Virus record (IMG/VR): IMGVR_UViG_3300009071_000006
Source: a virus
Length of the DNA stretch: 64,000 nt
Strand: one strand, 5' to 3'
Below, in pieces: positions 1 through 23,625 of this stretch. The translations under genes were made by a program, and so were the position numbers. Each line of letters starts with the position of its first letter. The first letter of the stretch is position 1. The notes beneath the pieces are model-generated. The model made no database searches. It had not been told where the DNA came from and worked only from the letters and a program-made list of their open reading frames with translations.

Positions 1-1320
1 CTGACCTACATGATCATAAAACCAAAAGCCATCTCCTAGCCAATTCATAGCACCTGTAAGCTCTTCTCTTGAACTAGGTGCGTCTTTCCCTAGTGTTTGT
101 GCAACAAGGCAGGATATTGTCTCTTCTACCCTGATTTCTAATGAAGCAATACAAACTTTATTACCTGTGCTTGCCAAATGACAGCATAAGTAATTTAGCA
201 ACATAGTTTTACCACTACCGCTAAACCCTGTCATTATACTCAACTCGTTCATCCTTATAAAAAAAGGAATGTTGAAAGGTAAAGGAATACCTCTGTAGTT
301 TTTTTCAGGATTAAAAAATCTTTCTGCTAATTCCCCTTCATAAGTTGATGCATTTTTTAAGTTTTCAGGTTCATAGTTTTTTGCATCCTCAATGATTTTT
401 TTAAGATCACCTTCCTTCAGCATAACCTCGTTAGCATCTTTGTATTCGCCAAAATCTACAGACCTACATCTTTCCCTACCTAATCTCTTAACTATTGACT
501 TCGTAGCTGACTCTCCTGCCTCATCGTTATCTAAGGCAAGTATGATAGTTTCAAATCTACTTAAATAATCAAAGTCGTTAGAAATCCACTCGCTATTAGG
601 ATCATTTCCATTCTGCGCTTCCCATTTTGCCCCAAAAGGAACGCTTACTATTCCATGCTCTTCGCTTTTTAACTCTTGCCATAAAGTCATGCAATCAATC
701 TCTCCTTCCGTTATAATAAGTGTATGCGCATTATCAGAAGTAAGGCTTTTTCCAAATAAAGTTTTGGCTGTATTTGAAGATGACCACATTTGCTTCTTTT
801 TGTTGCCTTCTTTTTTTAAAAACTTTGCCATCTCGCAAGTGCCACCATCTGTAGAATAGTACGGAAACATTACCTCCACACCTTTAGTGCTTACACCAAA
901 AGCCTTAATTGTATCTTTTGACATTCCTCTTTTTTCAATCAAGTAGTTCATTCCGTCTGAGTGTTTTATTTTCCACTCTGAGGAAATCTTAAAAGGCTCA
1001 AATTTTGGTTTAGTACCCTTGATGTATTCTTCTTCATATACACCCAAGTATTTTTTTGCCTCTAAGTATGCATCTACAAAACTTATACGTTTAACCTTTG
1101 CCCAAAGCTCTAATAAGTTATTACCCCCATCATCTCCTGCAAAATCTTTCCATGTTCCTATTTTTCTGCCTGAGGTAACTACTTTTAAGCTTCTGCCTTC
1201 TTCTCCTGCAATACTGCCAACACACCAATCGTTTCGTTCTAATTTTCCGTTAGGTAATAGAAGTTCGCATATACTTAAAGCATCATTGTGTAGCATATCT
1301 TTTATTTCACTAGCATCCAT
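1..1320 (-). CDS. DNA primase-helicase (Toprim primase fused to DnaB/T7 gp4-like helicase); 3' end beyond left window edge
   Basis: My own minus-strand translation from the ATG at 1320-1318 stays open to base 1 (440 codons). It is absent from the ORF track because it is truncated. Toprim motifs LIITEGEIDCMTLW and ILALDNDEAGE, then Walker A MTGFSGSGKT. Confidence 0.85.
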   Translation of the reverse strand, partial: MDASEIKDMLHNDALSICELLLPNGKLERNDWCVGSIAGEEGRSLKVVTSGRKIGTWKDFAGDDGGNNLLELWAKVKRISFVDAYLEAKKYLGVYEEEYIKGTKPKFEPFKISSEWKIKHSDGMNYLIEKRGMSKDTIKAFGVSTKGVEVMFPYYSTDGGTCEMAKFLKKEGNKKKQMWSSSNTAKTLFGKSLTSDNAHTLIITEGEIDCMTLWQELKSEEHGIVSVPFGAKWEAQNGNDPNSEWISNDFDYLSRFETIILALDNDEAGESATKSIVKRLGRERCRSVDFGEYKDANEVMLKEGDLKKIIEDAKNYEPENLKNASTYEGELAERFFNPEKNYRGIPLPFNIPFFIRMNELSIMTGFSGSGKTMLLNYLCCHLASTGNKVCIASLEIRVEETISCLVAQTLGKDAPSSREELTGAMNWLGDGFWFYDHVGQ

Positions 1321-2210
1321 TACACTACCTCCACTACTTTTTTAAGATTTTGTACATCGTCAAATCCTACTACTCTGTACTTAGGGTCAGTAAGGTCTAC
1401 CTTCTGTTTGCCACCGCCACCTACTATAATAACCTCAGTTAAAGCTTCTTTCTTTGCTTTCTCCAATGCAAATGACATCCTATCATTGGCATACTTGCCC
1501 TCCATTATTTTCATGGCATTCATCGTGCCATCCTGCCCAAGCTTAAATATCCAAGACCAATCAGGGTCTTTAATTTGCACAGGTGGATTGTGACCATTCC
1601 GTCCCATAAGAAAATCGCTTTCCTCCAATCTGTCACACAGGTCATAAAAACATTGTGTGTCCTTGTTGTTCTCTCTGTAAAATTTGCCTATGTTTTTTTC
1701 AGTAGTTCCGTATTGCTTTCGCCTAATAAACTTCTTGTGTGGTCTCTGCTTAGTAAGGATTGCAATTATTTCTGCAAATGGCGTGCTTTTAGGTCTTTTA
1801 TCAAAAGTTTCAACAGGTACTTCTAATAATAATTTATTATTATTACTTATTCTTTCTTTATTATTATGGTGGTGGTTTTCCACGTGTGGATTTTCCACGT
1901 GTGGGCTTTTGAAGTATGGATAGTCAGCAAAATCGTATTGATATCCACCTATACTACCATCAGGGTTTTTAAGTTGAGTGCCTTGACAGTATCCAAGTTC
2001 CATCAATTCTTTTAAAGCGCTTCTAACAGAACTTTCTCCGTCTGTAGATTTATTAATTATGTCTGCAACTCTGATTTCCCAATTTTCAGGTTTGCTCATA
2101 CAGTAGGCTAATAAGCCTTTTGATTTCCAACTTAGTTTGGAATCATTTAATATTCTGTTTGGTATTCTTGCGTATGGATCAAATATTTTTTCTTTTATTT
2201 TTATTATCAT
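1320..2210 (-). CDS. Putative replication initiator / winged-helix DNA-binding protein
   Basis: ORF track. The N-terminal RIPNRILNDSKLSWKSKGLLAYCMSKPENWEI...SVRSALKELMELGY looks like a wHTH. TAATG overlap with the primase-helicase start. The gene contains a tandem repeat plus an AT tract. Confidence 0.45.
   Translation of the reverse strand: MIIKIKEKIFDPYARIPNRILNDSKLSWKSKGLLAYCMSKPENWEIRVADIINKSTDGESSVRSALKELMELGYCQGTQLKNPDGSIGGYQYDFADYPYFKSPHVENPHVENHHHNNKERISNNNKLLLEVPVETFDKRPKSTPFAEIIAILTKQRPHKKFIRRKQYGTTEKNIGKFYRENNKDTQCFYDLCDRLEESDFLMGRNGHNPPVQIKDPDWSWIFKLGQDGTMNAMKIMEGKYANDRMSFALEKAKKEALTEVIIVGGGGKQKVDLTDPKYRVVGFDDVQNLKKVVEVV
1876..1905. repeat. Tandem 15-bp direct repeat TTTTCCACGTGTGG(A/G) x2, each with a CACGTG palindrome, next to an AT-only tract (1821-1868)
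   Basis: Read directly: 1876-1890 and 1891-1905 are 14/15 identical. They encode PHVENPHVEN in the linker of the initiator-like gene. Confidence 0.8.
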
Positions 2211-2244
2211 TCGATAGTTATTTTGTAGTTATTTTATGGTTACG

Positions 2245-2496
2245 TTATGTGTCTTCTTGAAAGAAGCCTTCTTCTTCTAGTTTGCTTTCTAGGTAAAAAT
2301 CAAGCTTTATTTTTTCAAGGATTCCAATTATTGCCACAAATGGAACATTTTCCTTAGGTCTTATTTGCAAAGACTCTAACTCTTCATCAAGATCACAAAA
2401 TTCAGCAGTATAATGATTGATCATCCCTTGGAGTTCCATTTCCAAGGCATCGCATTTTTTTGCTACATCCCATTCTTCTCCGTTAGGTTCTATCAT
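2245..2496 (-). CDS. Hypothetical protein (acidic, 83 aa)
   Basis: ORF track. Same strand as its neighbours and overlaps the next gene by 4 nt. Confidence 0.55.
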   Translation of the reverse strand: MIEPNGEEWDVAKKCDALEMELQGMINHYTAEFCDLDEELESLQIRPKENVPFVAIIGILEKIKLDFYLESKLEEEGFFQEDT

Positions 2497-3479
2497 CGGT
2501 CAGATAAAAACACTTCAGGGTATATCCCTCTTTTTGTTTTATCATGACTGCTACCCATCCAAGAGATTTTTATCCATGCGGCGCCTAAAGGTTTTGGAGG
2601 AGCGCCTCGCTCTATATGCCATCCTCCGTATCCATCGCCATACTCTTCTTTGTATCCCGCAATCTTGATATGATATTGAGTGTCTTGGTAAAGTGTTCCT
2701 GTGTCTTTAATTCTATCTCTTGCAATAGGCACAATCCATTGATCGTGTGTGTGACCACTTACGCAGAACGAAGGATCGGGGTGGAATACTGCCTCTCGAT
2801 TTGTTCCGATTACACCTCTTGTTACAGGACCGCCTCCACCTGAACCATGAAAATAGTGTAGCCATTTTCCATCTTGAGCGCCATGACTTTTTCCAACTAA
2901 ACGAACCCATCCACCATATCCTCCCATATAAACTCTATGATTACTTCCTTCGTCTTTAAGGTGTCTATTAAGACCAATCCTGAGCCTGTCAGTTAAGTTT
3001 GTTTCATGGTGTTTTAAAATTGCTGTTTCATGATTTCCCTGTCCAAGAATAGCAAACTGTTTAGCATATGGACTATAAAACTTGACCGCTTCATTTACTA
3101 AGCTATCTAGGTAATCTCCATTTTTGTACTCAGGAAGCAAATCATCTTTTGATGCTCTTCTATCAAACTTACCCTGCATTGCATCGTACAAGTCTCCATT
3201 ATCTAGCACAACTGCATTTCTTTTTACCGCTAATTCTAGATGACGCTTTTCCATCGATCTATCACAATGCTTAGAATCGTGATGGGCATCACTTCGCAAT
3301 AAAACCCAAGCGCACTCTTCTTTACTCTTGAAGTCCCAAGTTATTTTGTGAACATTTCTGCTTACTCTTGTAAGCTTCCAAGGGACGCTTTTTTCTGTTG
3401 CCATGACAAATAATGGAACAGCATTATTGTGTGCGTCAAGTTTTGTAAAGCCATACCAATCCTGCACATATAACAACAA
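2493..3479 (-). CDS. Calcineurin-like metallophosphoesterase
   Basis: Motifs LLRSDAHHD, DNGDLYD, GQGNHE, HG, SGHTHDQW in canonical order. The listed start is TTG at 3479; an ATG at 3404 is an alternative. Confidence 0.8.
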   Translation of the reverse strand: MLLYVQDWYGFTKLDAHNNAVPLFVMATEKSVPWKLTRVSRNVHKITWDFKSKEECAWVLLRSDAHHDSKHCDRSMEKRHLELAVKRNAVVLDNGDLYDAMQGKFDRRASKDDLLPEYKNGDYLDSLVNEAVKFYSPYAKQFAILGQGNHETAILKHHETNLTDRLRIGLNRHLKDEGSNHRVYMGGYGGWVRLVGKSHGAQDGKWLHYFHGSGGGGPVTRGVIGTNREAVFHPDPSFCVSGHTHDQWIVPIARDRIKDTGTLYQDTQYHIKIAGYKEEYGDGYGGWHIERGAPPKPLGAAWIKISWMGSSHDKTKRGIYPEVFLSDR

Positions 3480-3503
3480 TAATGCAGAATATGGTAATTA
3501 AGC

Positions 3504-3767
3504 TCAATTTAAATCACATTCAATGTTTTCACCTTTTTTCTCAATAAGCATACAGCACACTATAGCATCAACTTCTATTTCTGCATCTAATTCATGGACG
3601 CCCTCAATCTTCATGTATTCTTTAACTAATTGACTGTATGCACGCTTTCTTAATTTTTTTGCAGTAGCTTCTGATATTAAACTTTTGGTAGAATCACTAG
3701 TAAGAAATATATCCAACAAGGCTACATCTTCATATCCTAGTGACTGCGAATCCATGCCCCTACTCAT
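3504..3767 (-). CDS. Hypothetical protein
   Basis: ORF track. 4-nt overlap with the downstream gene. Confidence 0.55.
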   Translation of the reverse strand: MSRGMDSQSLGYEDVALLDIFLTSDSTKSLISEATAKKLRKRAYSQLVKEYMKIEGVHELDAEIEVDAIVCCMLIEKKGENIECDLN

Positions 3768-4354
3768 AAAAGCTGAGAGGGCATAGATTTTCCAAGGTTT
3801 TGTTTATTTCCCTCAATAAAGAAGCATGAAGTAATAGCCTGAAATTGGTCATCTGTCATATTGGGATATTTAGTTCTTAGCGTGGTTGCTCCTTGTATGC
3901 ATAAATCCATAAGATTAATATTCTGAACCAATGGAACAGGTAGCATAGAAGCAGTTGAACTAGAAGTGTTTTCTGCAACGCTTATAGGTGCTTCTGTAGT
4001 AACTTCAGTCTGATCGCTGTATTCATCAATTTGAACTATCCCTGCTTTGTCTCCTACGTTTAATTCTTTGTTAACTTGCCCTTTGTACTCGTTATCCTTG
4101 ATAGTAAGACCTTTGCCTTGAGAAGTAGGAGTAATTAAAATCTTAGTTCCTTCTCCATATGGAAATTCTGCTCTTCCCCAAAATGCACACCTAATTGAGC
4201 TTCCACTTGTGTCCTTTATAATGACCTTCTGTACACTATTTTCAGAGTCGCCTTTTGAGAAGACAGAGCGTTTATAAATGTTGGATACTTCGCCTTCTAT
4301 TCCTGTGCATACATATCCTTCAGGTGCAGTTAATAGTTGAGATATTTTATTCAT
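3764..4354 (-). CDS. Hypothetical protein, possible OB-fold ssDNA-binding protein
   Basis: ORF track. The beta-rich N-terminal half (VIIKDTSGSSIRCAFWGRAEF...ILITPTSQGKGLTIKD) is followed by an acidic/Ser-rich linker. The gene sits in the replication region. The fold call is tentative. Confidence 0.35.
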   Translation of the reverse strand: MNKISQLLTAPEGYVCTGIEGEVSNIYKRSVFSKGDSENSVQKVIIKDTSGSSIRCAFWGRAEFPYGEGTKILITPTSQGKGLTIKDNEYKGQVNKELNVGDKAGIVQIDEYSDQTEVTTEAPISVAENTSSSTASMLPVPLVQNINLMDLCIQGATTLRTKYPNMTDDQFQAITSCFFIEGNKQNLGKSMPSQLL

Positions 4355-4401
4355 ATTATTTTGTGTTTATTTTGTTATATTTTTCTGACTTAGGTTTAAT
4401 T

Positions 4402-4430
4402 ATTTGTACAAATTGCTTTCTTTCTGTCAA
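4402..4430 (-). promoter_or_regulatory. Sigma70-type promoter (-35 TTGACA at 4430-4425, A-tract UP element) overlapping the 12-bp perfect palindrome ATTTGTACAAAT (4402-4413)
   Basis: Minus strand reads AAAAAAAAGTCTTGACAGAAAGAAAGCAATTTGTACAAATAATTAAACC, upstream of the 4354 start. Confidence 0.4.
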
Positions 4431-4516
4431 GACTTTTTTTTGCCTTTCCATGTATTCCTTGTCTGACTTTTTTGCTGACACTAGAAGAGTGTCGCTTGAT
4501 ATAAAAACCCACGCAT

Positions 4517-5692
4517 TCATGCAACTTTTTCCATGTTTACAGGATATGGCATTACCCATTTGTTTACAGGTATTTTCCTACCTTTACCTGTCCAATAAAT
4601 CCGATATGTGCCACTTCTCCAATGTGGCTTCATCCTTTTATTGCCCATTAGTTTTTCCTGTTTACTGATATACCCTTTGTATTTAGCGCCTAAGAAATTT
4701 GCCGAGTATAAATTTGATACAGTACTTCCTTTATGTTGGAACTTAATTTTCTTAGATTCTGTTTTGTACTCTGTAGCTTTAGAGGACATATACAAAATTA
4801 AAGTAACCACTAGCTTAGTTAGGTTTTGCATTGAACTTACTTCATTGCGTACGCCTTTAATATCATCTAGATTTTTAAGTTTTTCGTTCTCAAAATAAAA
4901 AGTATTATCATAAGATTTTACTATCTCTCCTAGCCCCTTATCTTTTTCTATTGGGTAACAAGTTACACCAATATCACCTGTGTCGTATGCCATAACTACA
5001 CTAAAGCTTGGAACTATTCTGCAAGGCTCACCCATCTGTTGCTCTAAGCCTTCTAAGATAATTTCTTGAGCTTTATGTTGCTGATCTTCTTCTAGTGATA
5101 ATGTCTCTGTCCATAATCTAGATATCTGTGGTAGATAATGGCGTCCGTCTGTAGACTGCAAGCCTTTTGCTTTTGCATTTAACTCTTGGGTCATAGTTTG
5201 AACATCAAATGATCTAGCATATGCAAGTTGAGTAAGGTAGCACTTATTGTATTCAAAAGACGCACCAAGTTTTTCTCTAGGCTTTTCTCTGTCTAAGTCT
5301 GAATATACATCTTGAATCATATTTATAGGCAGAGTAAACAGACAAGAGTCGAATGGGTATTTTATTTTAGCTAAATCTACCTCATTTGTCATCTGAGTCA
5401 TGCCCATAAGTTTTACTAAATCCTTATCTAGAAAGTAATGTGGAAACATATATGTAGATAGCATTTCACCTACCTTAAATGATATGTCTGCTTGAAAACT
5501 ATAATCAGGACTATCTACACCCTCAATTTTCCCACCTGATGTTGCAAGTTGAAGAGTTGAATACCAAGCAGGATTATAATATCCCTTAGGTACTTTATAC
5601 TCTTTTGGGCAATGCTTTTTCCAATCAGGTGTAAGCTTTGCTTTTGATATAATTTTTTCGTGCAACGATAATATTTTGTCTGTCTTGCTCAT
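4517..5692 (-). CDS. Hypothetical protein (391 aa) with basic C-terminal PHWRSGTYRIYWTGKGRKIPVNKWVMPYPV motif
   Basis: ORF track. I moved the start to the ATG at 5692 (MSKTDK), which forms an ATGA overlap with an upstream micro-ORF. Confidence 0.6.
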   Translation of the reverse strand: MSKTDKILSLHEKIISKAKLTPDWKKHCPKEYKVPKGYYNPAWYSTLQLATSGGKIEGVDSPDYSFQADISFKVGEMLSTYMFPHYFLDKDLVKLMGMTQMTNEVDLAKIKYPFDSCLFTLPINMIQDVYSDLDREKPREKLGASFEYNKCYLTQLAYARSFDVQTMTQELNAKAKGLQSTDGRHYLPQISRLWTETLSLEEDQQHKAQEIILEGLEQQMGEPCRIVPSFSVVMAYDTGDIGVTCYPIEKDKGLGEIVKSYDNTFYFENEKLKNLDDIKGVRNEVSSMQNLTKLVVTLILYMSSKATEYKTESKKIKFQHKGSTVSNLYSANFLGAKYKGYISKQEKLMGNKRMKPHWRSGTYRIYWTGKGRKIPVNKWVMPYPVNMEKVA

Positions 5693-5781
5693 AGGATCAT
5701 ATCGATTATGATTGCTAACCACCCTAGTGCAAATAATGCAGGAATTATAATGTTTTCTTTGTTAAGTATTTTATCTGTCAT
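5689..5781 (-). CDS. Micro-ORF, 30-aa single-pass membrane peptide
   Basis: Own translation: MTDKILNKENIIIPALFALGWLAIIIDMIL. Stop overlaps the next ATG (ATGA). Below the ORF-track size cutoff. Confidence 0.3.
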   Translation of the reverse strand: MTDKILNKENIIIPALFALGWLAIIIDMIL

Positions 5782-5880
5782 TGTGTTGTCCTTTATGTTT
5801 ATGTTTACGATTGTATTTTGACTTATCCTTATGAGGACGTGCCTTGGTGAATACAAATGGAATCCTTGCTTTGGCTCTCA

Positions 5881-6030
5881 TTAGCTTGCTCTGCAAATTC
5901 TTAATGCTTCAGCATCCCAAATTTCAGAAAGCCTTGACAGTATCCAAGTCTGACTGTTTTGAACTCTTGCTCTTGTTAAGGCAGAAGTGATTCTTTGAAG
6001 TCTTGGTTGGTGTTGATTTAAGTTGTTCAT
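5881..6030 (-). CDS. Small protein (49 aa), predicted leaderless
   Basis: Own translation: MNNLNQHQPRLQRITSALTRARVQNSQTWILSRLSEIWDAEALRICRAS. The ATG lies exactly 29 nt downstream of the TTGACA at 6065-6060. Confidence 0.4.
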   Translation of the reverse strand: MNNLNQHQPRLQRITSALTRARVQNSQTWILSRLSEIWDAEALRICRAS

Positions 6031-8097: not shown

Positions 8098-8303
8098 GCC
8101 CTTGCCTCCAATATATCAATAGCCCCTTGAATCATCTTGGCTCTTTCTTTTGGGATTTTTACTTCTCCCCCAAAATCATCTTTAATGACAATGTAATTTT
8201 CTTCCCTAACTTCTACAGAAGGGCAATTAGCTTTACCACAGCAAAGTAAAATTTGATCGCCTTTAATTCTGTAGCTTGTATCTTCAGTTTTATTCTTCTT
8301 CAT
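8094..8303 (-). CDS. Hypothetical protein
   Basis: ORF track. Overlaps both neighbours. Confidence 0.5.
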   Translation of the reverse strand: MKKNKTEDTSYRIKGDQILLCCGKANCPSVEVREENYIVIKDDFGGEVKIPKERAKMIQGAIDILEARA

Positions 8304-9414
8304 AATTTGTTATTCGCCTCGCTATCCATTCTGTACAATGAGATGTAATAGCGTTGCCTAGTATTTTATACCTTTGGTTGTCTGATAAATCAATAGTTCC
8401 ATTTTCTAAAATCCAACTGTTGTCGTCAAGCTTCAGTTTTTTTCCTTTTTTTGTAAAGTTATCAGGAAGCCCCTGCAGTCTTTCGCATTCTATTGGTGTT
8501 ATTTTTCTAACTCCTTCTTTGGTAGCAACTCCTACGCCCTCGCCTCCTTGTTGACTTCTCAATGTCATGCAAACATTGATTGACGATTTTGGAGTAGTAT
8601 CCCCATTCCAACTTACTGCAATTTTAGGACCGCTTCCATGAGTACCACCTACTGCTGTAGTGAGAGTGGAAGCTGTTTCTCCTGTGTGGCATCCGTTGTA
8701 AACATCAACTCCTGTAGAGACATATTTGCCGACTTCAGTAGGTTCTCCTTCAATACCTGAGGCATATTCTCTAACTTTCCTCTTCTCTTCGCCCTCAATA
8801 AGATACCCTTTGCCCCTTTCTCTGAAAGATAATATTTTTGAGATGGATTCTCCACTAATATCTCCGAAAGCGCCAAGTACAAAGATTCTTCTCCTGCGTT
8901 GAGGTACGGCTTGCCTAACTCCTCTTTTGTTGCTCCCTCCACTTTGTGGAAAACTGAATCCGACGTATCTAGAGTCCAATATCGTCCATCCGATTGAATT
9001 ATGCCCGACGTTGAGTAAGTCGTTGATGAGCCTCGCAAAGTCATCCCCATTGTTTGATGTGTGGAGTCCAACGACATTCTCAGCCAAGGAATACCTAAGT
9101 CCTCTAGTTCTGAGATGCTGAATAATTCTGATTGCGTGTTCATAAAGAGTAGATCGATTTCCCTTAAATCCTTTTCCTTTCCCTGCTATGCTTAAATCCT
9201 GACAAGGGAAAGAATAGATTAAGCCGTCGGCATCAGGCAAGTCTGCGGGATCAAGTTTTTGCACATCCGCAAACAAAGGTATATTGGGAAAGTTGTATTT
9301 AGCGACAGCAGAGGCATACTTGTCCCATTCAACCATAGCAACCACTTCATGTCCTGCTCTATGTAATCCTAAGTCTCCACATCCTGCTCCACTAAAGAGT
9401 GAAATCCACTTCAT
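8290..9414 (-). CDS. DNA (cytosine-5)-methyltransferase
   Basis: Canonical C5-MTase motifs in order: I LFSGAGCGDLG, IV SFPCQDLS, VI ENV, VIII QRRRRIFVLG, then TLRSQQGG, and IX/X ITPIECERLQGLPDNFT and GNAIT. Confidence 0.9.
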   Translation of the reverse strand: MKWISLFSGAGCGDLGLHRAGHEVVAMVEWDKYASAVAKYNFPNIPLFADVQKLDPADLPDADGLIYSFPCQDLSIAGKGKGFKGNRSTLYEHAIRIIQHLRTRGLRYSLAENVVGLHTSNNGDDFARLINDLLNVGHNSIGWTILDSRYVGFSFPQSGGSNKRGVRQAVPQRRRRIFVLGAFGDISGESISKILSFRERGKGYLIEGEEKRKVREYASGIEGEPTEVGKYVSTGVDVYNGCHTGETASTLTTAVGGTHGSGPKIAVSWNGDTTPKSSINVCMTLRSQQGGEGVGVATKEGVRKITPIECERLQGLPDNFTKKGKKLKLDDNSWILENGTIDLSDNQRYKILGNAITSHCTEWIARRITNYEEE

Positions 9415-10294: not shown

Positions 10295-10300
10295 AAAAGA

Positions 10301-10329
10301 CTAAATCTTTTTTATCTTAAGTACGTCAA
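10301..10329 (-). promoter_or_regulatory. Promoter-like element (TTGACG -35) immediately after a terminator
   Basis: Minus strand TTGACGTACTTAAGATAAAAAAGATTTAGTCTTTTGTG. Confidence 0.3.
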
Positions 10330-10334
10330 ACAAA

Positions 10335-10382
10335 ACCAAAAAAATAGCCCCCTCTCGTCACACCAAGTAAACGAGAGAGGGC
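10335..10382 (-). terminator. Rho-independent terminator
   Basis: Minus strand GCCCUCUCUCG-N14-CGAGAGGGGGC (11-bp stem with one G-U; 10382-10372 / 10357-10347), followed by UAUUUUUUUGGUUUUG. Confidence 0.75.
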
Positions 10383-10829
10383 AGAACAACAACAGTCTTT
10401 AAAATAACTGTGGTTGGTTTTTTATGTCAACGGAATTGGAAAAATTTATAAAAATGATTTCTATGAAAAACCATCTTACCCTGCCCTTCGCTTATCTCCA
10501 TTGAAGGAGTATGGGAATTTTACACACAATTTAATGCATAACCAATTTCACGAAGGACAGGATTTGACGGAAGAAGTAGATCATCAAATTAATGTTTTGT
10601 GGCTTATATTTATGTTTAAGTTTATGATGGAAGGCGCTGATTTTCTCGCTTTTCGATATTTCAATCTCTACTTCTTTTCTTATCTAGTAGTAGCTAATTC
10701 TATACAGTTGTCGTACGTCTTGACTACTTTTAGATAAAGTTTAAAAGTTTTTTTTTGGTTTTGAACTTTTGTTCCCTTCTTATTAGTCGTTTTGCTTGAT
10801 CTGTCGGTCACAAGTCCGTTGCTTAATAT
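10383..10829 (-). ncRNA. Candidate non-coding transcript (~450-490 nt) between promoter 10864-10859 and terminator 10382-10335
   Basis: No minus-strand ORF over 25 codons. Starts with the same ATCATATT sequence as the large RNA. Helices: AAGAAGUAGA (10677-10668)/UCUACUUCUU (10581-10572) and CUGUCCUUCG (10560-10551)/CGAAGGGCAG (10490-10481). Confidence 0.3.
10402..10430 (-). promoter_or_regulatory. Internal promoter-like element (TTGACA 10430-10425, N17, TTATTT) about 40 nt upstream of the terminator hairpin
   Basis: Minus strand CCGTTGACATAAAAAACCAACCACAGTTATTTTAAAGACTG. It shares the TTGACATAAA start with other promoters in the window. Confidence 0.3.
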
Positions 10830-10835
10830 GATTTA

Positions 10836-10864
10836 ATAAAACCATAAGTTATTATTTATGTCAA
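10836..10864 (-). promoter_or_regulatory. Sigma70-type promoter: UP A-tract, TTGACA, N17, TTTTAT, then TAAATCATA
   Basis: Minus strand AAAAAGGGTTGACATAAATAATAACTTATGGTTTTATTAAATCATATT. Near-identical to the promoter at 18401-18373. Confidence 0.55.
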
Positions 10865-10899
10865 CCCTTTTTGATATTTTATTTTAAAAAAGTTTTTCC

Positions 10900-10937
10900 A
10901 AAAGTCCTAGAACCCTTATAAACACTAGGGTTTAGCC
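10900..10937 (-). terminator. Rho-independent terminator-like hairpin after the large RNA
   Basis: Minus strand GGCUAAACCCUAG-UGUUUAU-AAGGGUUCUAGGAC (stem with one bulge), then UUUUGG. Confidence 0.5.
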
Positions 10938-10989
10938 TTTTTATTTTTTTAAAAAAACTTTAATTTTTTATTAAACAATTTGCAGTTTT

Positions 10990-12180
10990 CTAATTTAAAG
11001 AGTGCTAGACAAGGTAGGAGTCGAACCTACAAGAGGATAGATTAGACTGCATTCCGCACCTCTCTTATCACCACCTATTTGCAGTTAAGTTAGAACTTGT
11101 TAGCATATAAAATTGATTCGCCCTCACACTCAGCATTGGATTCCGTGTACTTTGGAAGTCGGCTCTAGTGTAAGGACTTGGACTTTGCCACAGGCAGATT
11201 TGACTGATTACCCTGCGAAGTTCTGATGTTATCTCACGGATTGATTCCGTCCGTCCCATTAAAATGTATCCATTGGCTTATCGTCACCTTGGTCAGATGA
11301 TCCGTTGCCTTGTCTTAACGCTTGCCTCACGTAATGCTCGCTTTCACTAAACGCATAGGAGGATTCTATAAGATAGGCTTAGGTATCTGAGTCAAGTTCA
11401 CTCGATGTAAGCACAACCTCAATGGATTAAAATAATTAGATGGCTCTCTGCGCCTCATGGAGTCGTTCGTTGCTCCATGCACCTTCTTCGATAGGGTGTG
11501 TGACTGAGGGTCAGTTGGCACTTACGCATACCTGTTTTATATCTCCGCTTATTAAGGATTCTCTATAATCCTCTGACCTACGACTTGCTTAACGCTTGTC
11601 TCTCCCGAAGAAGGGAAAGCCTACCATTCACAAGCCTTGGTTATTACCACGCTTTAAAGCGCAGAGAGCCATCTAAAAATTAATTTGCCTTTAGGTATGG
11701 TCTAGTACGACTATCGTGTATCACATTGCTCTAACCTATGAGATGGCATCATGAAAGTGGCAGTATCCACAGACATAACACTTGACTCAATAGGGAGTGT
11801 TTTAACACGAATAGCGTAGGCACATTGACCTAAAGACAAGATATTAACTTAGAGTCTACTTTCGTAGGAGAGTAGCTGATTTTCTCTATCCCTCGGTGTT
11901 TCATCTCTCTAAGCTAATATCAAAGTTACTCAATAAAACCTTCCGTTAGCAGGGGCGCCGTCTTCATCTAGGAGCGTCAAGTGGTATTGCCATAGATAGC
12001 AGGGACAAGCGTTAACTTGTTTGCCTCGTTCGATAAGAAAGATTCCTGTGAGCCTAATCGAAAAGTTTTACTGAATAACTTTTGTTATAGTTTTTGTTTT
12101 GATCGGCTTTTGGCTGATCCCCTCTTTAGTCTTTTTGGTCGTGTTGCCTTTTCTTTAGCTCAAGGTGCTTTGTTGAATAT
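10990..12180 (-). ncRNA. Large (~1.2 kb) structured non-coding RNA candidate, class unknown
   Basis: It has its own promoter and terminator and no credible ORF, and it is GC-enriched relative to its flanks. Helices: an 18-bp perfect helix (11676-11659/11453-11436) and a 15-bp helix (11921-11907/11854-11840) capped by a GAAA tetraloop hairpin, plus many local hairpins. The 3' end is tRNA-like. Confidence 0.6.
11004..11104 (-). ncRNA. tRNA-like module (T-arm plus acceptor-like helix) at the 3' end of the large RNA; not a canonical tRNA
   Basis: Minus strand GUAGG-UUCGACU-CCUAC (11030-11014) is a textbook T-arm. It is followed directly by CUUGUCUAGC, which pairs with GCUAACAAG (11104-11096). 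I could fold no anticodon arm. Confidence 0.4.
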
Positions 12181-12186
12181 GATTTA

Positions 12187-12215
12187 AACCTATTGCTTTT
12201 TTTCATAAATGTCAA
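12187..12215 (-). promoter_or_regulatory. Sigma70-type promoter of the large RNA: UP A-tract, TTGACA, N17, TAGGTT, then TAAATCATA
   Basis: Minus strand AAAAAAAATTTCAAAGTAGCTTGACATTTATGAAAAAAAGCAATAGGTTTAAATCATATTC. Confidence 0.6.
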
Positions 12216-12249
12216 GCTACTTTGAAATTTTTTTTAAAACTTTTTTTCT

Positions 12250-12288
12250 TAAAACGGCTAAGTCCCTGTATTCATAAGGGATTCAGCC
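12250..12288 (-). terminator. Rho-independent terminator-like hairpin after gene 12312..12500
   Basis: Minus strand GGCUGAAUCCCU-UAUGAAUAC-AGGGACUUAGCC (11/12 paired, including one G-U), then GUUUUAAG. Confidence 0.5.
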
Positions 12289-12311
12289 TGTAAAAAAAAG
12301 TTAAATATTTT

Positions 12312-12500
12312 TTATTTTTTTTCTGCACTTTTTGATTTTTCTGCAATTCTTGCTTGATCTATTAAGTTTTTTAGCGTCTCTAGCCTGTGCTTAATATTGC
12401 TCATAACTAAGTCTGACCCATTCCAATTTCTCACTTGCTGACTAAGTGCTTCGCGTTCTTCGTATATTGATTTATCTTTAGGTAAGTTTCTTGCTTTCAA
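12312..12500 (-). CDS. Hypothetical protein (62 aa)
   Basis: ORF track. Last gene of an operon, followed by a terminator. Confidence 0.5.
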   Translation of the reverse strand: MKARNLPKDKSIYEEREALSQQVRNWNGSDLVMSNIKHRLETLKNLIDQARIAEKSKSAEKK

Positions 12501-16122: not shown

Positions 16123-16941
16123 TTATTCTAGAGTATCATCTTCTGCACAATCAAAACCTTCTGACGTGTTACAGTCTAATTGATTTTGCTCCATCTGATC
16201 TTGCACATCTCCCCATAAGTCAACTTGCCCTTGCAGTTCGTCTTCCACTTCATCTATTAAACTTCTACCTGATCGAAGCTTTCCGTAGTTTATTGGCAAT
16301 CCCTGTACAATTTCATTAGGTATAGCCTTAGGCTTGCGAGAAAGGTGCTTATATCCCTTTATAGATTTTCTGCTAGTAAACGAGTGGGATGGGAGATGCC
16401 TCGCCTTGTAGGTCTCGTTTGAGTACCAACATCCCATAGACCAATGCCCCAAGTCTCCATTTATAAAAGTAGGTGTTCCATGATGATTCATGAAAACTAG
16501 TTTATTGGTCTGCATTGAAATCATTCCCTTCATCCAACGCTTGCCATTTGAAGAGTTTACAAAATCGCTTTTAATATTAACCATTGGCTTAACGTATGAA
16601 TGAGCAAATGTCCTAGAGTCTGAACGCTCATGACTAGTACCATCTAAATCCTGTATAGTCCCATTATGAGTCATGACTAGATTTTTATTTATACGAAATG
16701 GATGACAATTAATTTTTTCCTTTTTACCCTTTGTGGCAAATCGAAAATGTATTAAGCAATCAAACTTACTTACCTTGCTGTATTTCTCTAGAAATAAATC
16801 AAAGTCCATTGTTTTGAAGATATGCAACTTTTTCTTGAATGCCCATGAAATTCCGAATCCATGAGGGTTGCGATCCTTAGCGTTGAATAGTCTTTCCAAA
16901 GGAACGGATTTTCCTTTGGGTTTATAAATTATGATACACAT
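16123..16941 (-). CDS. Class-II (Ntn-type) glutamine amidotransferase-like protein
   Basis: N-terminal MC (Cys2 nucleophile), then HFRFATKG, NCHPF, VMTHNGTI, typical of the GATase_4/YafJ-like Ntn fold. Confidence 0.65.
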   Translation of the reverse strand: MCIIIYKPKGKSVPLERLFNAKDRNPHGFGISWAFKKKLHIFKTMDFDLFLEKYSKVSKFDCLIHFRFATKGKKEKINCHPFRINKNLVMTHNGTIQDLDGTSHERSDSRTFAHSYVKPMVNIKSDFVNSSNGKRWMKGMISMQTNKLVFMNHHGTPTFINGDLGHWSMGCWYSNETYKARHLPSHSFTSRKSIKGYKHLSRKPKAIPNEIVQGLPINYGKLRSGRSLIDEVEDELQGQVDLWGDVQDQMEQNQLDCNTSEGFDCAEDDTLE

Positions 16942-16975
16942 TGTGATGTCTCCTTATTTTATTATGTTATAGTTA

Positions 16976-18037
16976 TTAGAACCAAGTGAATGTGGAATTG
17001 GCAATCTTGTCAAGCATTGCACGCTTAGGGTCTTTTGTGTAATTGTAGCGAGTCTCTGCACCACTCATAAGCCTATCCCATTTGCGTGCCATGCGCATTG
17101 ATGTTGCCCACATTCTTGTGAAGTTAGCCTTGTAGATTTCTGAGAAATTAAACATTGCACGTCCATCTTGGTTTTTACGAAAATCGTTTACCAAGTAGTT
17201 TAATGCACGCTGTCCACGTGTAGCATTATCTCCACGATGGATGTGGTTTTGTCTGTGCTTAGTGCAGTTGGTTGGATAACCTTTTGAGCGCCATGCACGA
17301 CGTGCGATATATTCGCAAGTGAACAAGTGACTGAGAAACTTTTGAATGTTAAGAGTCCCTGCACCCCAACGAAACTCTATCGTAGCTTTTCTGTTGATGG
17401 TAGTAAGGTTTAAGAATGAACCTCTTGCACAAGTATTAGCAAAATCTTGAACATCACTTCTATTAAAGCTATTTCCTACGCCATGCTTCTTAGTGCGACG
17501 TGCAATCTTTTGAGTCATGGTATTGATGATATTGCTGTTTACTGCAATCTCTCTAGAGTAGCCATTACGATTCCTGTCAGTTCCTGTTTGTGCATATGCA
17601 CTATACTGAAGGTTTGAACTTTTCTTCATGATCTCTGCAAGAAACATTGTTACCTGTGAAGGAGTTGCTGTGCGTCCTGTAATTGACTCTAATCCTAAAT
17701 GGATATGCTGACCACATGAGCGATTTACTTTGCCACCTACAAGCTTGATGAAGTCAAAAAGGTCTATCATGAACTGACGCCCTTCCTCACCTTTAAGTAT
17801 TGGAGTTACGATTTCTACGCCTACTCTGTTGTAACCTCTAGTGCGAAGGCTTGAATCAGTTTCACACTTGGCACGCTTGCCATTAAATGAAGGAGCTTGA
17901 ACAGTCTCTCCATTGATAGTGTAAGATGCGTCCATCTCTATTCCGTTATGGTATCCACCTACTCTGAAAGGATGGCTTGATGGTAAGATGCATTCGACTT
18001 CTACGCCAAATGTGATTTCGTTAACTTTAGGATTCAT
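16976..18037 (-). CDS. Amidoligase_2-family (glutamine synthetase-like) putative amidoligase
   Basis: FGVEVEC, ETDSSL, GVEIVTPILKG and CGQHIHLG occur in the order characteristic of the putative amidoligase enzyme family (Pfam Amidoligase_2, from memory). Confidence 0.65.
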   Translation of the reverse strand: MNPKVNEITFGVEVECILPSSHPFRVGGYHNGIEMDASYTINGETVQAPSFNGKRAKCETDSSLRTRGYNRVGVEIVTPILKGEEGRQFMIDLFDFIKLVGGKVNRSCGQHIHLGLESITGRTATPSQVTMFLAEIMKKSSNLQYSAYAQTGTDRNRNGYSREIAVNSNIINTMTQKIARRTKKHGVGNSFNRSDVQDFANTCARGSFLNLTTINRKATIEFRWGAGTLNIQKFLSHLFTCEYIARRAWRSKGYPTNCTKHRQNHIHRGDNATRGQRALNYLVNDFRKNQDGRAMFNFSEIYKANFTRMWATSMRMARKWDRLMSGAETRYNYTKDPKRAMLDKIANSTFTWF

Positions 18038-21549: not shown

Positions 21550-22138
21550 TATTCCATCCTCTCATTGCTTCTAATATTGCGTCAATTGTTCCTGCCCTCT
21601 GCTGAAACTGCTCCCATGCTATCTTCTGATCTAGGCTATCCCACTCCAATACCAACTTATGCTTCTTCTCATATTCATCCAACTCTTCTCTTTCTTCCCG
21701 CTCATCTTTTTCCCATTCTTCCAAAAATAAAAATTTGCCTGTATCGCTCCCAAATCCTGCTAACCCCACTTCTGCCATCTCCTCACTTAAATCTTTTAAG
21801 CTCTCACTAACTCCTTCTTCTATCCATTCCCCATAGCTGTTGTTTAGCGCCACGCTTGCTACTTGCTCTTTCTCACTATCTAGCCATACGCAGTATACAG
21901 GTACTTCATCTTCATCCGATACATCCTCTAGCCTCATATGCCCATCTAGCAGGGTCTTTGTTCTCGCATTCCATGTCAAAGGCTGTAGCCAACCAAAATG
22001 CTCTAATGACTCTCCTGCCTTTCCTTCATTTCTCTCAGGAAGTGTTCTTGGATTCCATTCTGCTCTCCTTATATCTCCTGCCTTCATTACGGCTAGGCAT
22101 GGATATTTATCTTCCTGATTCTCCATTGGTTGACTCAT
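21542..22138 (-). CDS. ParB N-terminal domain protein
   Basis: FGWLQPLTWNARTKTLLDGHMRLEDV...VPVYCVWLD. Confidence 0.65.
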   Translation of the reverse strand: MSQPMENQEDKYPCLAVMKAGDIRRAEWNPRTLPERNEGKAGESLEHFGWLQPLTWNARTKTLLDGHMRLEDVSDEDEVPVYCVWLDSEKEQVASVALNNSYGEWIEEGVSESLKDLSEEMAEVGLAGFGSDTGKFLFLEEWEKDEREEREELDEYEKKHKLVLEWDSLDQKIAWEQFQQRAGTIDAILEAMRGWNNE

Positions 22139-23625
22139 TCTACTTTTAGTGTTGGGTCAAGTTTTAGCATTCTGTTAATAATTACTTGGCAATACTTTGG
22201 GTCTAACTCCATGCCATAGCATTTTCTCTTTAGTTGATGTGCTGATGCCATAGTAGACCCCGAACCCAAAAACATATCAATAACCAATCCGCCAACAGGG
22301 CAACTGCTTTTAATAGCCCTACCACAAAGTGATAAAGGCTTAGGGGTTGCGTGATTACCTACAGCCTCCCTCTCTTTGTTTGATGTCCTGTCGATGTGCC
22401 ACACATTATTCATGTTGTCGTGCATATTATCAAAATATGTCCGTTTGTTATAAAATTCTTGAAGTATTTCATTGGATTCTTCCTCCAACTCTTCGTATGA
22501 CCTCAAGAATGCCTTACCCTTTGAGGCATTTCTAAGTTTGTAATAATGTTCTTTTGTCGGAATGAAAAACTGAGACTTTGTGAAGTAGTGAGATGCGGAC
22601 GACTTTCCTGTTATCTTTATGCAGTCGTTTGTCGTCCATTCCATCTTATCTTTTTCTCCTACAAGATATGTCAACAAAGGCATCCACTCCTTCATAAAGA
22701 AATCCTTATTTTGTCCTGCCTCCTGCTCTCCCATCATGGCAAATAATAAATGCTCTGCGTGTAGGCACTTCTCGTCTGCTGTGGCAAACATACGAGTATT
22801 TTCACTTTTCTGCCCCTGCCCATGTCCCTTGTCCCAAGTTATGAGATTTCTAAATTTTAATTTTTTTTCAATTTGATATGGCTTTAGAATAACATGATAC
22901 ACATCCATAAGTGGCTCGTCTATTCCCCAACAATACCACGATCCGTTTTCCTTAATGTACGAAAACTGCAAAGGAATCCACGCCTTATTAAACTCTAGTA
23001 GTGCATCAAAGTTTAGATTGTCATTCATAACCCCATCTTTTTCTTTCTTCATTCCGTAAGGTGGGTCGTTGTGTGCAAGGTCTGCCCTCTCTTCTCCCAT
23101 AAGTCTCTCGACGTCTTCGGGCTTCGTGGAGTCCCCGCATAAAATTCGATGATCTCCTATTTGTATTAAATCACCCAATTTAATGTCTGTTTCAATTTTT
23201 TCTACTTCTTCAGAAGCTACATCAAAATTATCCTCTTTGATTTCCAAAACTTCGTCGACGGCATAGTCAATCGGAACATCAAGACCCCATTCATTTAAAT
23301 CTTCCGCTTTCCATTCGTTTAAAAGTTGCTCCATATCCCATTCGCCAAAACTAGAGTTGTCCTTAATTATAAACTCTTTCTGCTGATCCTCAGTCAACTC
23401 GCTTGCGCGTATTATAGGTACTTCCTTGAGTCCTGCCTCCACGCAAGCTTTAAGCCTCATATTTCCACCAAGAACTATACTTTCGCTGTTCACTACAATC
23501 GGTCTCAGTTTCAGCATTTCGGGGAAGTCCTTAATGCTTTTCACCAACTGCTTAAATTTTTCATCTTTTATAATTCTAGGATTATCAGGGTTTGGCTTAA
23601 TGTTTTTTATTAGTTCTGTTTTCAT
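22135..23625 (-). CDS. ParB-domain / DNA N6-adenine or N4-cytosine methyltransferase fusion
   Basis: N-terminus: IKPNPDNPR...LRPIVVNSESIVLGGNMRLKA (ParB). Middle: NDPPYG (motif IV). C-terminus: VIDMFLGSGST (motif I). Confidence 0.85.
   Translation of the reverse strand: MKTELIKNIKPNPDNPRIIKDEKFKQLVKSIKDFPEMLKLRPIVVNSESIVLGGNMRLKACVEAGLKEVPIIRASELTEDQQKEFIIKDNSSFGEWDMEQLLNEWKAEDLNEWGLDVPIDYAVDEVLEIKEDNFDVASEEVEKIETDIKLGDLIQIGDHRILCGDSTKPEDVERLMGEERADLAHNDPPYGMKKEKDGVMNDNLNFDALLEFNKAWIPLQFSYIKENGSWYCWGIDEPLMDVYHVILKPYQIEKKLKFRNLITWDKGHGQGQKSENTRMFATADEKCLHAEHLLFAMMGEQEAGQNKDFFMKEWMPLLTYLVGEKDKMEWTTNDCIKITGKSSASHYFTKSQFFIPTKEHYYKLRNASKGKAFLRSYEELEEESNEILQEFYNKRTYFDNMHDNMNNVWHIDRTSNKEREAVGNHATPKPLSLCGRAIKSSCPVGGLVIDMFLGSGSTMASAHQLKRKCYGMELDPKYCQVIINRMLKLDPTLKVE

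Follow-up and report, generated by a model that had tools for sequence, protein, structure and literature searches.

To our knowledge, very few classes of large, elaborate bacterial or phage RNA have been described, among them GOLLD, ROOL, OLE and raiA. Every such class has opened new biology, most lately in the form of RNA-only cages. GOLLD RNA was reportedly described by Weinberg in 2009. Other systems bear on how large transcripts can be built from separable parts: the intervening sequences (IVS) of bacterial 23S and 16S ribosomal RNA (rRNA) are optional insertions of 100-250 nucleotides (nt) with long near-perfect stems, removed by RNase III and distributed sporadically among close relatives, and tRNAs or tRNA-like elements serve as RNase P and RNase Z substrates between RNAs in tRNA arrays, the MALAT1 mascRNA and mitochondrial tRNA punctuation. 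GOLLD and ROOL are both encoded by phages, combine a conserved with a variable part and have tRNAs near or inside the variable region, and the structure of GOLLD has been studied by cryo-electron microscopy (cryo-EM) (PMC12286853). Here we analyse a gene-free island of 2 kb (positions 12312..10295, minus strand, no called gene) in a 64-kb stretch of DNA from an uncultured marine phage (IMG/VR record IMGVR_UViG_3300009071_000006; the whole stretch is referred to as the window). Unit 1, the first of three tandem non-coding units in the island, is a G+C-enriched transcription unit free of open reading frames (ORFs) that runs from 12215 to about 10900 on the minus strand. Comparison with related phages shows that it represents a new family of predicted large structured phage RNAs, outside Rfam 15 and with a modular, permutable build. 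The reading that we favour, with a probability of roughly 0.55, is that unit 1 is a predicted non-coding RNA (ncRNA) of ~1.2 kb working as an array of autonomous modules, whose transcription, separate folding, action in trans and processing are proposed below.

Unit 1 resolves from end to end into stem-closed modules, namely a leader, P-long, P15, B, E, C, D and a 3′ tail; E and the tail are optional and the remainder are conserved (Table 1). A phage with identical sequence at the locus recurs in many marine metagenomes, and five more lineages of related, uncultured marine phages yielded homologues, the divergent relatives being reached through neighbouring genes. These comprise full islands in L014 (= L027; JGI) and L016 (Logan), an island of 5.9 kb in L022/L023/L025 (ENA), and partial copies in L008-L010 (Logan, DRR4985xx) and L035 (TARA). 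The RNA blocks are 86-96% identical where the flanking proteins share only 30-60% identity, and genomic G+C is about 37% here versus about 45% in L022.

The linkers joining B, E, C, D and the tail are short and A/U-rich, and it is exactly there that the relatives differ. The window has nothing between C and D, where a 145-nt bead occurs in L014 and 575 nt in L016; after D, the window carries its tail, L016 something else and L014 nothing. In L022 the conserved set is complete but split and reordered over three promoter-led units: U1 is a divergent full-length paralogue, U2 consists of a type-1 leader, other beads, E and D, and U3 consists of a type-2 leader, P-long, P15 and B. The U3-type arrangement (P-long, P15 and B) also occurs in L035, at another genomic position. 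Because E, the tail and the beads are present, absent or replaced at fixed linkers, and because of the rearrangements in L022 and L035, we infer that the modules are autonomous. The initial annotation of this DNA had implied a single giant fold held together by very long helices; the comparisons instead yield separate stem-closed modules, and no conserved pairing between modules was found in them. The annotation had also drawn attention to GUUAACGCUUGUC as complementary to two copies of CAAGCGUUAA. This complementarity exists in the sequence, but the alternative or pseudoknotted pairing suggested by it is not conserved: at the GUUAACGCUUGUC site L014 differs in sequence and L016 carries a 58-nt insertion in a local hairpin (ACAAG-loop-CUUGU), and the pseudoknot was rejected on these grounds.

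The predicted minimum free energy is -315 kcal/mol for the 991-nt core (z = -7.59 against dinucleotide shuffles), compared with -288 kcal/mol for the antisense strand. The sense fold contains 29 G·U pairs, each equivalent to A·C on the opposite strand; together with the better folding of the sense strand, these pairs indicate that the fold is strand-specific. The inner hairpins, the 15-bp helix and the GNRA loop listed in the initial annotation are all present in this minimum-free-energy fold, the 15-bp helix and inner hairpins are retained through compensatory changes, and the GNRA loop switches from GAAA to GCAA between relatives. Covariation was measured as the number of predicted pairs changed on both sides, with alignments in which the partner strand was slid (5′ part, P-long and B) and 500 shuffles (5′ part, P-long and signature hairpin) as controls. 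Across the 5′ 340 nt, 10 of 79 pairs changed on both sides, compared with 0-2 in slid controls, and 0/500 shuffles reached this value. P-long gave 7 of 23 pairs over six sequences (slid controls 0-1; 0/500 shuffles) and B gave 5 of 40 predicted pairs with 96.3% paired (slid controls 0-1). Eight of 51 predicted pairs changed in this way in C, two pairs did so in leader hairpin H2, and D, with 37 predicted pairs, showed one C-G to U-A change.

Conservation within the modules is concentrated in defined elements. The P-long helix measures 22-24 bp in the six sequences, with 97.8% of cells paired, and its length is held despite sequence divergence in its distal half. Inside P-long, five of six lineages keep ACGGCGCCCCUGCUAAC (11961-11945) nearly invariant, with 1-2 substitutions. 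The stretch includes a 6-nt palindrome, GGCGCC, within a region predicted to be mostly unpaired, through which kissing dimers could form. A signature motif is found in P15, GAUGAAA…stem-GAGAAAAUCAG-stem, in which GAUGAAA is followed after 3-5 nt by a bulged 8-bp stem bearing the invariant loop (A/G)GA(A/G)AAUCAG, all within a stem-closed domain. Ten copies from six lineages were found, covering 8 of the 9 large units examined (the motif is absent from L022 U2) and two partial units; those of the window lie at 11905-11868 in unit 1 and near 10670-10625 in unit 2. Six of the eight stem pairs covary over the ten copies, a covariation score reached by 0/500 shuffles. As a search pattern, the motif can be written as GATGAAAN{3,5}…N{8,10}GAGAAAATCAG. 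In B, the pairing of the 47-nt hairpin extension is kept through G·U to C-G and U-A to C-G changes. Within C, GAGGUUGUGCUUACAUCGAGU is invariant in all five copies that hold the block (window, L008, L014, L016 and L022 U1); the module as a whole is 93-95% identical in L014 and L016, and its paralogue in L022 U1 is at 79%. D shows 90-94% identity in L014, L016 and L022 U2.

Table 1 Features of the non-coding island and of the phage promoter type (window coordinates)
Feature	Position	Strand	Description
Intrinsic terminator of the preceding protein operon (upstream boundary)	12251..12288	-	GGCUGAAUCCCU-loop-AGGGACUUAGCC-GUUUU; predicted from sequence
Unit 1 promoter	12185..12240	-	A/T tract; TTGACA 12215-12210; TAGGTTTA 12192-12185
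Leader (conserved)	12083..12180	-	Alignments A2/A3; H1 12169-12157; invariant GGCAACACGACCAAAAAGAC 12148-12129; Shine-Dalgarno-like AAAGAGGGGAUC; H2 12119-12101
P-long domain (conserved)	11922..12082	-	23-bp helix 12082-12060 with 11944-11922, enclosing about 115 nt
P15 domain (conserved)	11840..11921	-	15-bp helix 11921-11907 with 11854-11840; AGAUGAAACACC; bulged hairpin with loop AGAAAAUCAG 11894-11868; GNRA hairpin CUAC-GAAA-GUAG 11867-11856
B domain (conserved)	11685..11839	-	Closed by 12-bp helix 11839-11828 with 11696-11685
B inner helix	11818-11805 with 11719-11706	-	13 bp
B hairpin extension	11786-11740	-	47 nt; common to L022 only
E domain (optional)	11436..11676	-	241 nt; 18-bp perfect helix 11676-11659 with 11453-11436
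C domain (conserved)	11266..11428	-	Closed by AUCCAUUG.../...CCAAUGGAU
D domain (conserved)	11114..11260	-	Two stem-closed subdomains; overlaps the 63-codon ORF
3′ tRNA-like tail (optional)	11004..11104	-	9-bp acceptor-like stem 11104-11096 with 11013-11004
Terminator-like 3′ element of unit 1	10900..10937	-	AACCCU/AGGGUU hairpin 10932-10911 and CUAGGACUUUU; predicted from sequence
Unit 2	10440..10864	-	Same promoter type (TTGACA at 10864); paralogous leader; second signature copy; predicted structured RNA of ~400 nt
Unit 3	10338..10430	-	TTGACA at 10430; candidate small RNA of ~60 nt with single-stranded CUGUUGUUGUUCU and intrinsic terminator 10382-10347
Copies of the phage promoter type	32718, 30702, 30025, 27893, 14623, 7750, 6875, 6065 and others	-	

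The promoter proposed in the initial annotation, TTGACA at 12215-12210 with TAGGTT at 12192-12187, is present in the sequence. It was unscored by a generic sigma-70 scan; it belongs to a single phage promoter type with 14 near-identical minus-strand copies in the window, and it is kept in L008, L014, L016 and L022. In eight protein-coding units of this type, the first T of TTGACA is followed exactly 35 nt later by an ATG opening an ORF of 49-155 amino acids (aa), and in a ninth the ATG lies at 37 nt; this ATG often reads ATGAACAAC (Met-Asn-Asn). The fixed distance indicates that the phage makes leaderless mRNAs, and many of its early genes seem to be expressed in this form. The two ncRNA promoters, at 12215 and 10864, have ATA where the protein units have ATG. 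The same 35-nt spacing, with ATA here, places the transcription start of unit 1 near 12180, and with ATA in place of ATG the transcript is without the start codon normally used by the phage. Most of the other phage genes have no Shine-Dalgarno sequence; leaderless mRNAs and scarce Shine-Dalgarno sequences would fit a Bacteroidota host, judging from these features. Upstream of the promoter, hairpins equivalent to the terminator of the preceding operon are found at the matching position in L008, L014 and L016. At the other end, the annotated hairpin and U-tract is present as a 6-bp AACCCU/AGGGUU stem (10932-10911) followed by CUAGGACUUUUGG, but it is weak; the same type of element closes L022 U1, directly before the next promoter. 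G+C is 0.39-0.45 across 11000-12199 versus about 0.26-0.31 in the flanks, in agreement with the enrichment noted previously. Taken together, stop codons in all frames, a promoter of its own, a stable predicted fold and covariation support the initial view of a large, independently transcribed, structured phage RNA that is predicted to be non-coding.

Several of the exchangeable elements resemble parts of tRNAs. In the 3′ tail, a T arm (GUAGG-UUCGACU-CCUAC, 11030-11014; 5 bp and a 7-nt UUCGANU loop) is followed directly by CUUGUCUAGC, which pairs with GCUAACAAG at 11104-11096 in an acceptor-type stem. Of the tRNA-like module recognised in the initial annotation, this acceptor/T-arm minihelix stands; the module is however optional, being absent from L014 and different in L016, and ARAGORN found no tRNA or tmRNA anywhere in the window, so that the tail is not recognised as a cloverleaf. 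This same T arm also lies near the 3′ end of L022 U1. Between C and D, L014, L016 and L022 U1 carry an acceptor/T-arm bead in which both partners of 8 of 37 pairs have changed; a real tRNA-Glu(UUC), the only one recognised by ARAGORN, lies in L022 U1 as well, at L022 positions 4068-4142. The arrangement recalls phage tRNA arrays, in that stem-closed RNA units are strung on one predicted transcript with minihelices and a real tRNA between them; it differs in that most of the modules are not tRNA-like and measure 80-240 nt.

The perfect 18-bp helix closing E, which was the most prominent element of the initial annotation, was found as described, and the hairpins inside E match those given there. 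E is absent from L008, from L014 and, as far as the contig reaches, from L035; L016 has in its place an unrelated domain of ~150 nt closed by an 11-bp perfect helix; and in L022 E recurs at 95% identity following a different module. The predicted helix is therefore, on these comparisons, part of an optional inserted module and not of the conserved core. We had at first placed E at the end of a stem closing B and C; this was rejected, as E lies in the linker between two independently closed modules. Such a discrete presence/absence polymorphism, bounded by perfect inverted repeats and highly similar in a phage with about 50% protein identity and other flanks, is also what a mobile DNA element resembling a miniature inverted-repeat transposable element (MITE) would produce, in which case the repeat would lie in a non-coding region and the helix would have no RNA function. 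The sequence flanking both insertions is A/T-rich and ends ..UAA, possibly a target duplication but too short and A/T-rich to judge. Against this explanation, E is present in one copy per genome, always inside the RNA island and always in sense orientation, and no second copy of the 18-bp repeat with ≤3 mismatches occurs in the 64-kb window (0.01 expected by chance). Its interior is itself highly structured. The window and L022 copies differ at nine positions, seven of them in stems, and 7/7 keep RNA pairing, two by turning the perfect 18-bp helix into one with G·U pairs. Other stem-closed modules occupy the same linker in relatives, as expected for recombinational module exchange, and a MITE would explain E only and not the conserved core. 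The initial annotation had foreseen that the repeat might mark the termini of an insertion found elsewhere in related genomes; E is indeed a discrete insertion with another context in L022, but a single-copy one confined to the RNA island whose substitutions preserve pairing. Since it occurs once, is 95% identical in another context and has stem substitutions that keep pairing, E behaves in these sequences like an exchangeable RNA module rather than a dispersed MITE, and we regard a mobile-element origin as unlikely. It also resembles the rRNA IVS, as an optional stem-closed insertion in a conserved structured RNA that is sporadic among relatives, with excision of E being hypothetical; the host RNA is here not an rRNA, and the position of E is a linker between modules rather than the tip of a helix.

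The main rival to an array of autonomous modules is an integrated ornate RNA of the GOLLD or ROOL kind, in which the intact ~1.2-kb transcript would adopt a single tertiary fold and serve as a scaffold made of RNA alone, perhaps in the form of a homo-oligomer or cage, with the optional domains projecting from it or enclosed. The genomic context is like that of GOLLD and ROOL, including the tRNA-Glu in L022 U1; sequence identity is very high in the conserved loops and junctions, the direct abutment of P-long, P15 and B (0-nt linkers) suggests coaxial stacking, and the nearly invariant GGCGCC palindrome could form a kissing dimer. The likeness to GOLLD extends to size (about 0.8-1.2 kb), a conserved and a variable part, GNRA loops and many helices; the phage genes (terminase and others), the tRNA-Glu and the tRNA-like beads add a likeness of context only. 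ROOL, another large ornate RNA, is likewise encoded by phages or prophages in the vicinity of tRNA islands and is not known to have a protein partner. The resemblance in kind pointed out in the initial annotation (a phage RNA, a conserved and a variable part, an association with tRNAs) is thus a fair one. Membership of either class, which it had also suggested, was not borne out, with no covariance-model match to GOLLD or ROOL in the window or in two homologous islands, even at permissive thresholds. Whole stem-closed modules vary here at several linkers, in contrast to the one variable 5′ half of GOLLD, and they are reordered or split over transcripts, with 2-3 paralogous units per phage and islands of 2-5.9 kb. 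ROOL is a single ~580-nt fold with pseudoknots, whereas no conserved pseudoknot or fixed helix order was seen here. A single fold is hard to reconcile with modules that in L022 are permuted and split over transcripts yet remain 86-95% identical, unless they assemble in trans; the GUUAACGCUUGUC pairing is not conserved, and no other conserved pairing between modules was found. A GOLLD/ROOL-like fold or assembly therefore fits the context and fits the permutation less well, and we consider it doubtful, though better placed than a mobile element. A DNA-level or cis-acting element, such as a packaging site, an origin of replication whose transcript serves as a primer or forms an R-loop, or a long regulatory 5′ leader, would be in keeping with a strong promoter that reads into untranslated structured sequence and with the weak 3′ terminator, which could let some transcription continue into unit 2 and the genes downstream. 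The pairing is, however, strand-specific and rich in G·U, the covariation follows RNA rules, the downstream units have promoters of their own, and the island lies at different genomic positions in L035 and the window. A replication origin in particular was rejected, as the locus shows no turn in cumulative GC skew and lies many kb from the replication genes, and we hold any such cis role to be highly improbable. Least probable of all is that the locus encodes a small protein, from the 63-codon ORF at 11068..11259 or from other micro-ORFs. This ORF, the longest in unit 1, is open over ~50 codons in the window, L014 and L022, but in L016 codon 36 is a stop, and the ORF lacks a ribosome-binding site and does not begin where a leaderless mRNA would start; most of its substitutions are non-synonymous, and they coincide with compensatory RNA pairs, for example CGCAGG/CCUGUG to CAUAGG/CCUAUG. 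All three stop codons occur in all six frames of unit 1, by which stop-codon recoding was rejected as well, and the initial judgement that no credible ORF is present holds.

These comparisons favour a model in which unit 1 would be transcribed from the standard phage promoter with the leaderless-mRNA AUG disabled, each module would fold independently, and the modules would act in trans as stable RNAs, each displaying its invariant loops and junctions to a conserved partner of host or phage origin. Cleavage into separate modules would probably come first, and we infer that RNase P/Z could cut at the tRNA and tRNA-like beads, RNase III in the 18-24 bp helices and RNase E in the A/U-rich linkers. 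Under this model the RNA would be an operon of RNA modules, as opposed to a single globular fold like that of a ribozyme or a leader that regulates in cis. A number of observations weigh against it. P-long, P15 and B adjoin with 0-nt linkers and stay together in every relative, and so behave as one composite fold rather than as beads. The terminator of unit 1 is weak, its hairpin having been missed by a simple terminator scan. Covariation rests on alignments of only 3-10 sequences because there are only six lineages, several of them partial, and its statistics ignore kinship. The near-invariant blocks could reflect recent lateral exchange among co-infecting phages rather than selection on every base. 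Finally, the analysis identified no partner, and the small protein encoded directly upstream of the island has no Pfam or PHROG match.

A wider proposal, which we put forward tentatively and hold to be less probable than the array itself, is that the islands are multi-kilobase "RNA operons" in which fixed modules (P-long/P15/B, C and D), contiguous or split and permuted, are punctuated by tRNAs or tRNA-like elements and accompanied by exchangeable accessory modules, giving either separate cooperating RNAs or a machine reassembled in trans. In the latter case the pieces would resemble fragmented rRNAs, which reassemble in trans. If true, this would be a kind of genetic unit not yet described, with domain shuffling at the level of RNA. 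The class already adds an unusual mode of evolution, in that near-invariant modules are nevertheless inserted, swapped, reordered and split among transcripts. If the modules act separately, they would provide a compact model for the construction of a long ncRNA out of autonomous domains and for its subsequent processing; should they reassemble, they would constitute an RNA assembly of several pieces that occurs in nature. Short, testable RNAs are available in the signature motif and in the C and D blocks, which are candidates for cryo-EM and partner pull-downs.

Searches of databases placed the family apart from described RNAs. All 4227 models of Rfam 15 were run with cmscan, at the gathering score over the 64-kb window and permissively over 10600-12500 (E ≤ 10) and over the L022 and L016 islands (E ≤ 5). 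There was no match in the window at the gathering score and nothing relevant under the permissive thresholds, including no covariance-model match to tmRNA, RNase P RNA, group I/II introns, OLE, raiA, 6S or other Rfam 15 families; the RNA can thus not be recognised as a GOLLD, ROOL, tmRNA, intron or RNase P RNA. INPHARED phages gave no BLASTN match to the whole RNA, a 60-nt motif query gave only a chance match in a probable coding region of MT838184, and tBLASTN with a 1265-aa structural protein retrieved no cultured relative. Among five conserved 18-21-mers compared with IMG/VR, four gave nothing and one gave two chance matches without further similarity. Scans of one genome per GTDB species with the conserved patterns found nothing, and no description of this RNA was found in the literature.

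Within the group of related phages, the island is accessory because other relatives are without it: following the neighbouring genes led to no homologue in L001, L021, L031-L033, L034 or L036, and a 43-kb contig carrying P0009/P0130 has densely packed genes and no gap. Where present, it can be extensive. The L022 island (1-5911, minus strand) has no ORF >86 aa over 5.9 kb, so that islands of up to this length leave about 7% of the 83-kb genome non-coding. The only match of the metagenome scan, L017, represents the same phage in its 3′ part; the remainder, connected at low coverage, is unrelated bacterial DNA of high G+C, and the contig is probably chimeric. Related assemblies break in or beside the RNA island (L008-L010, L013, L015, L018 and L035), with three independent Logan contigs ending at the same base; these breaks and the join in L017 probably arise from near-identical RNA blocks common to co-occurring phage strains.

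Two further units lie in the island. In unit 2, 53 pairs are predicted and 18 of them are changed on both sides across four phages; its equivalent in L016 is about 1.1 kb long. Single-stranded ACUGUUGUUGUUCU in unit 3 is complementary to the 5′ ends of leaderless mRNAs (AUGAACAACA...). Unit 3 is kept in L014 and L016, with compensatory changes in its terminator stem, and its predicted small RNA may be an antisense regulator. The protein upstream of the island has 62 aa (window 12312-12500, minus strand), and a small protein is kept in this place in all four phages with complete islands (58 aa in L014, 105 aa in L016 and 129 aa in L022; 39-63% identity). It could be a partner of the RNA, or its position could reflect plain synteny. 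The phage itself has a genome of ~84 kb with all genes on the minus strand, encoding a terminase as well as a group comprising two DNA methylases (C5; N6/N4), an amidoligase/GATase pair, ParB_N-like proteins and an AcrVA2-like protein, with this group at window positions 16123-18037, 22135-23625 and 8290-9414. Relatives carry TAGT (L002 17389-18564), and this set, with the amidoligase/GATase pair and the ParB_N-like proteins, resembles thymidine-hypermodification systems.

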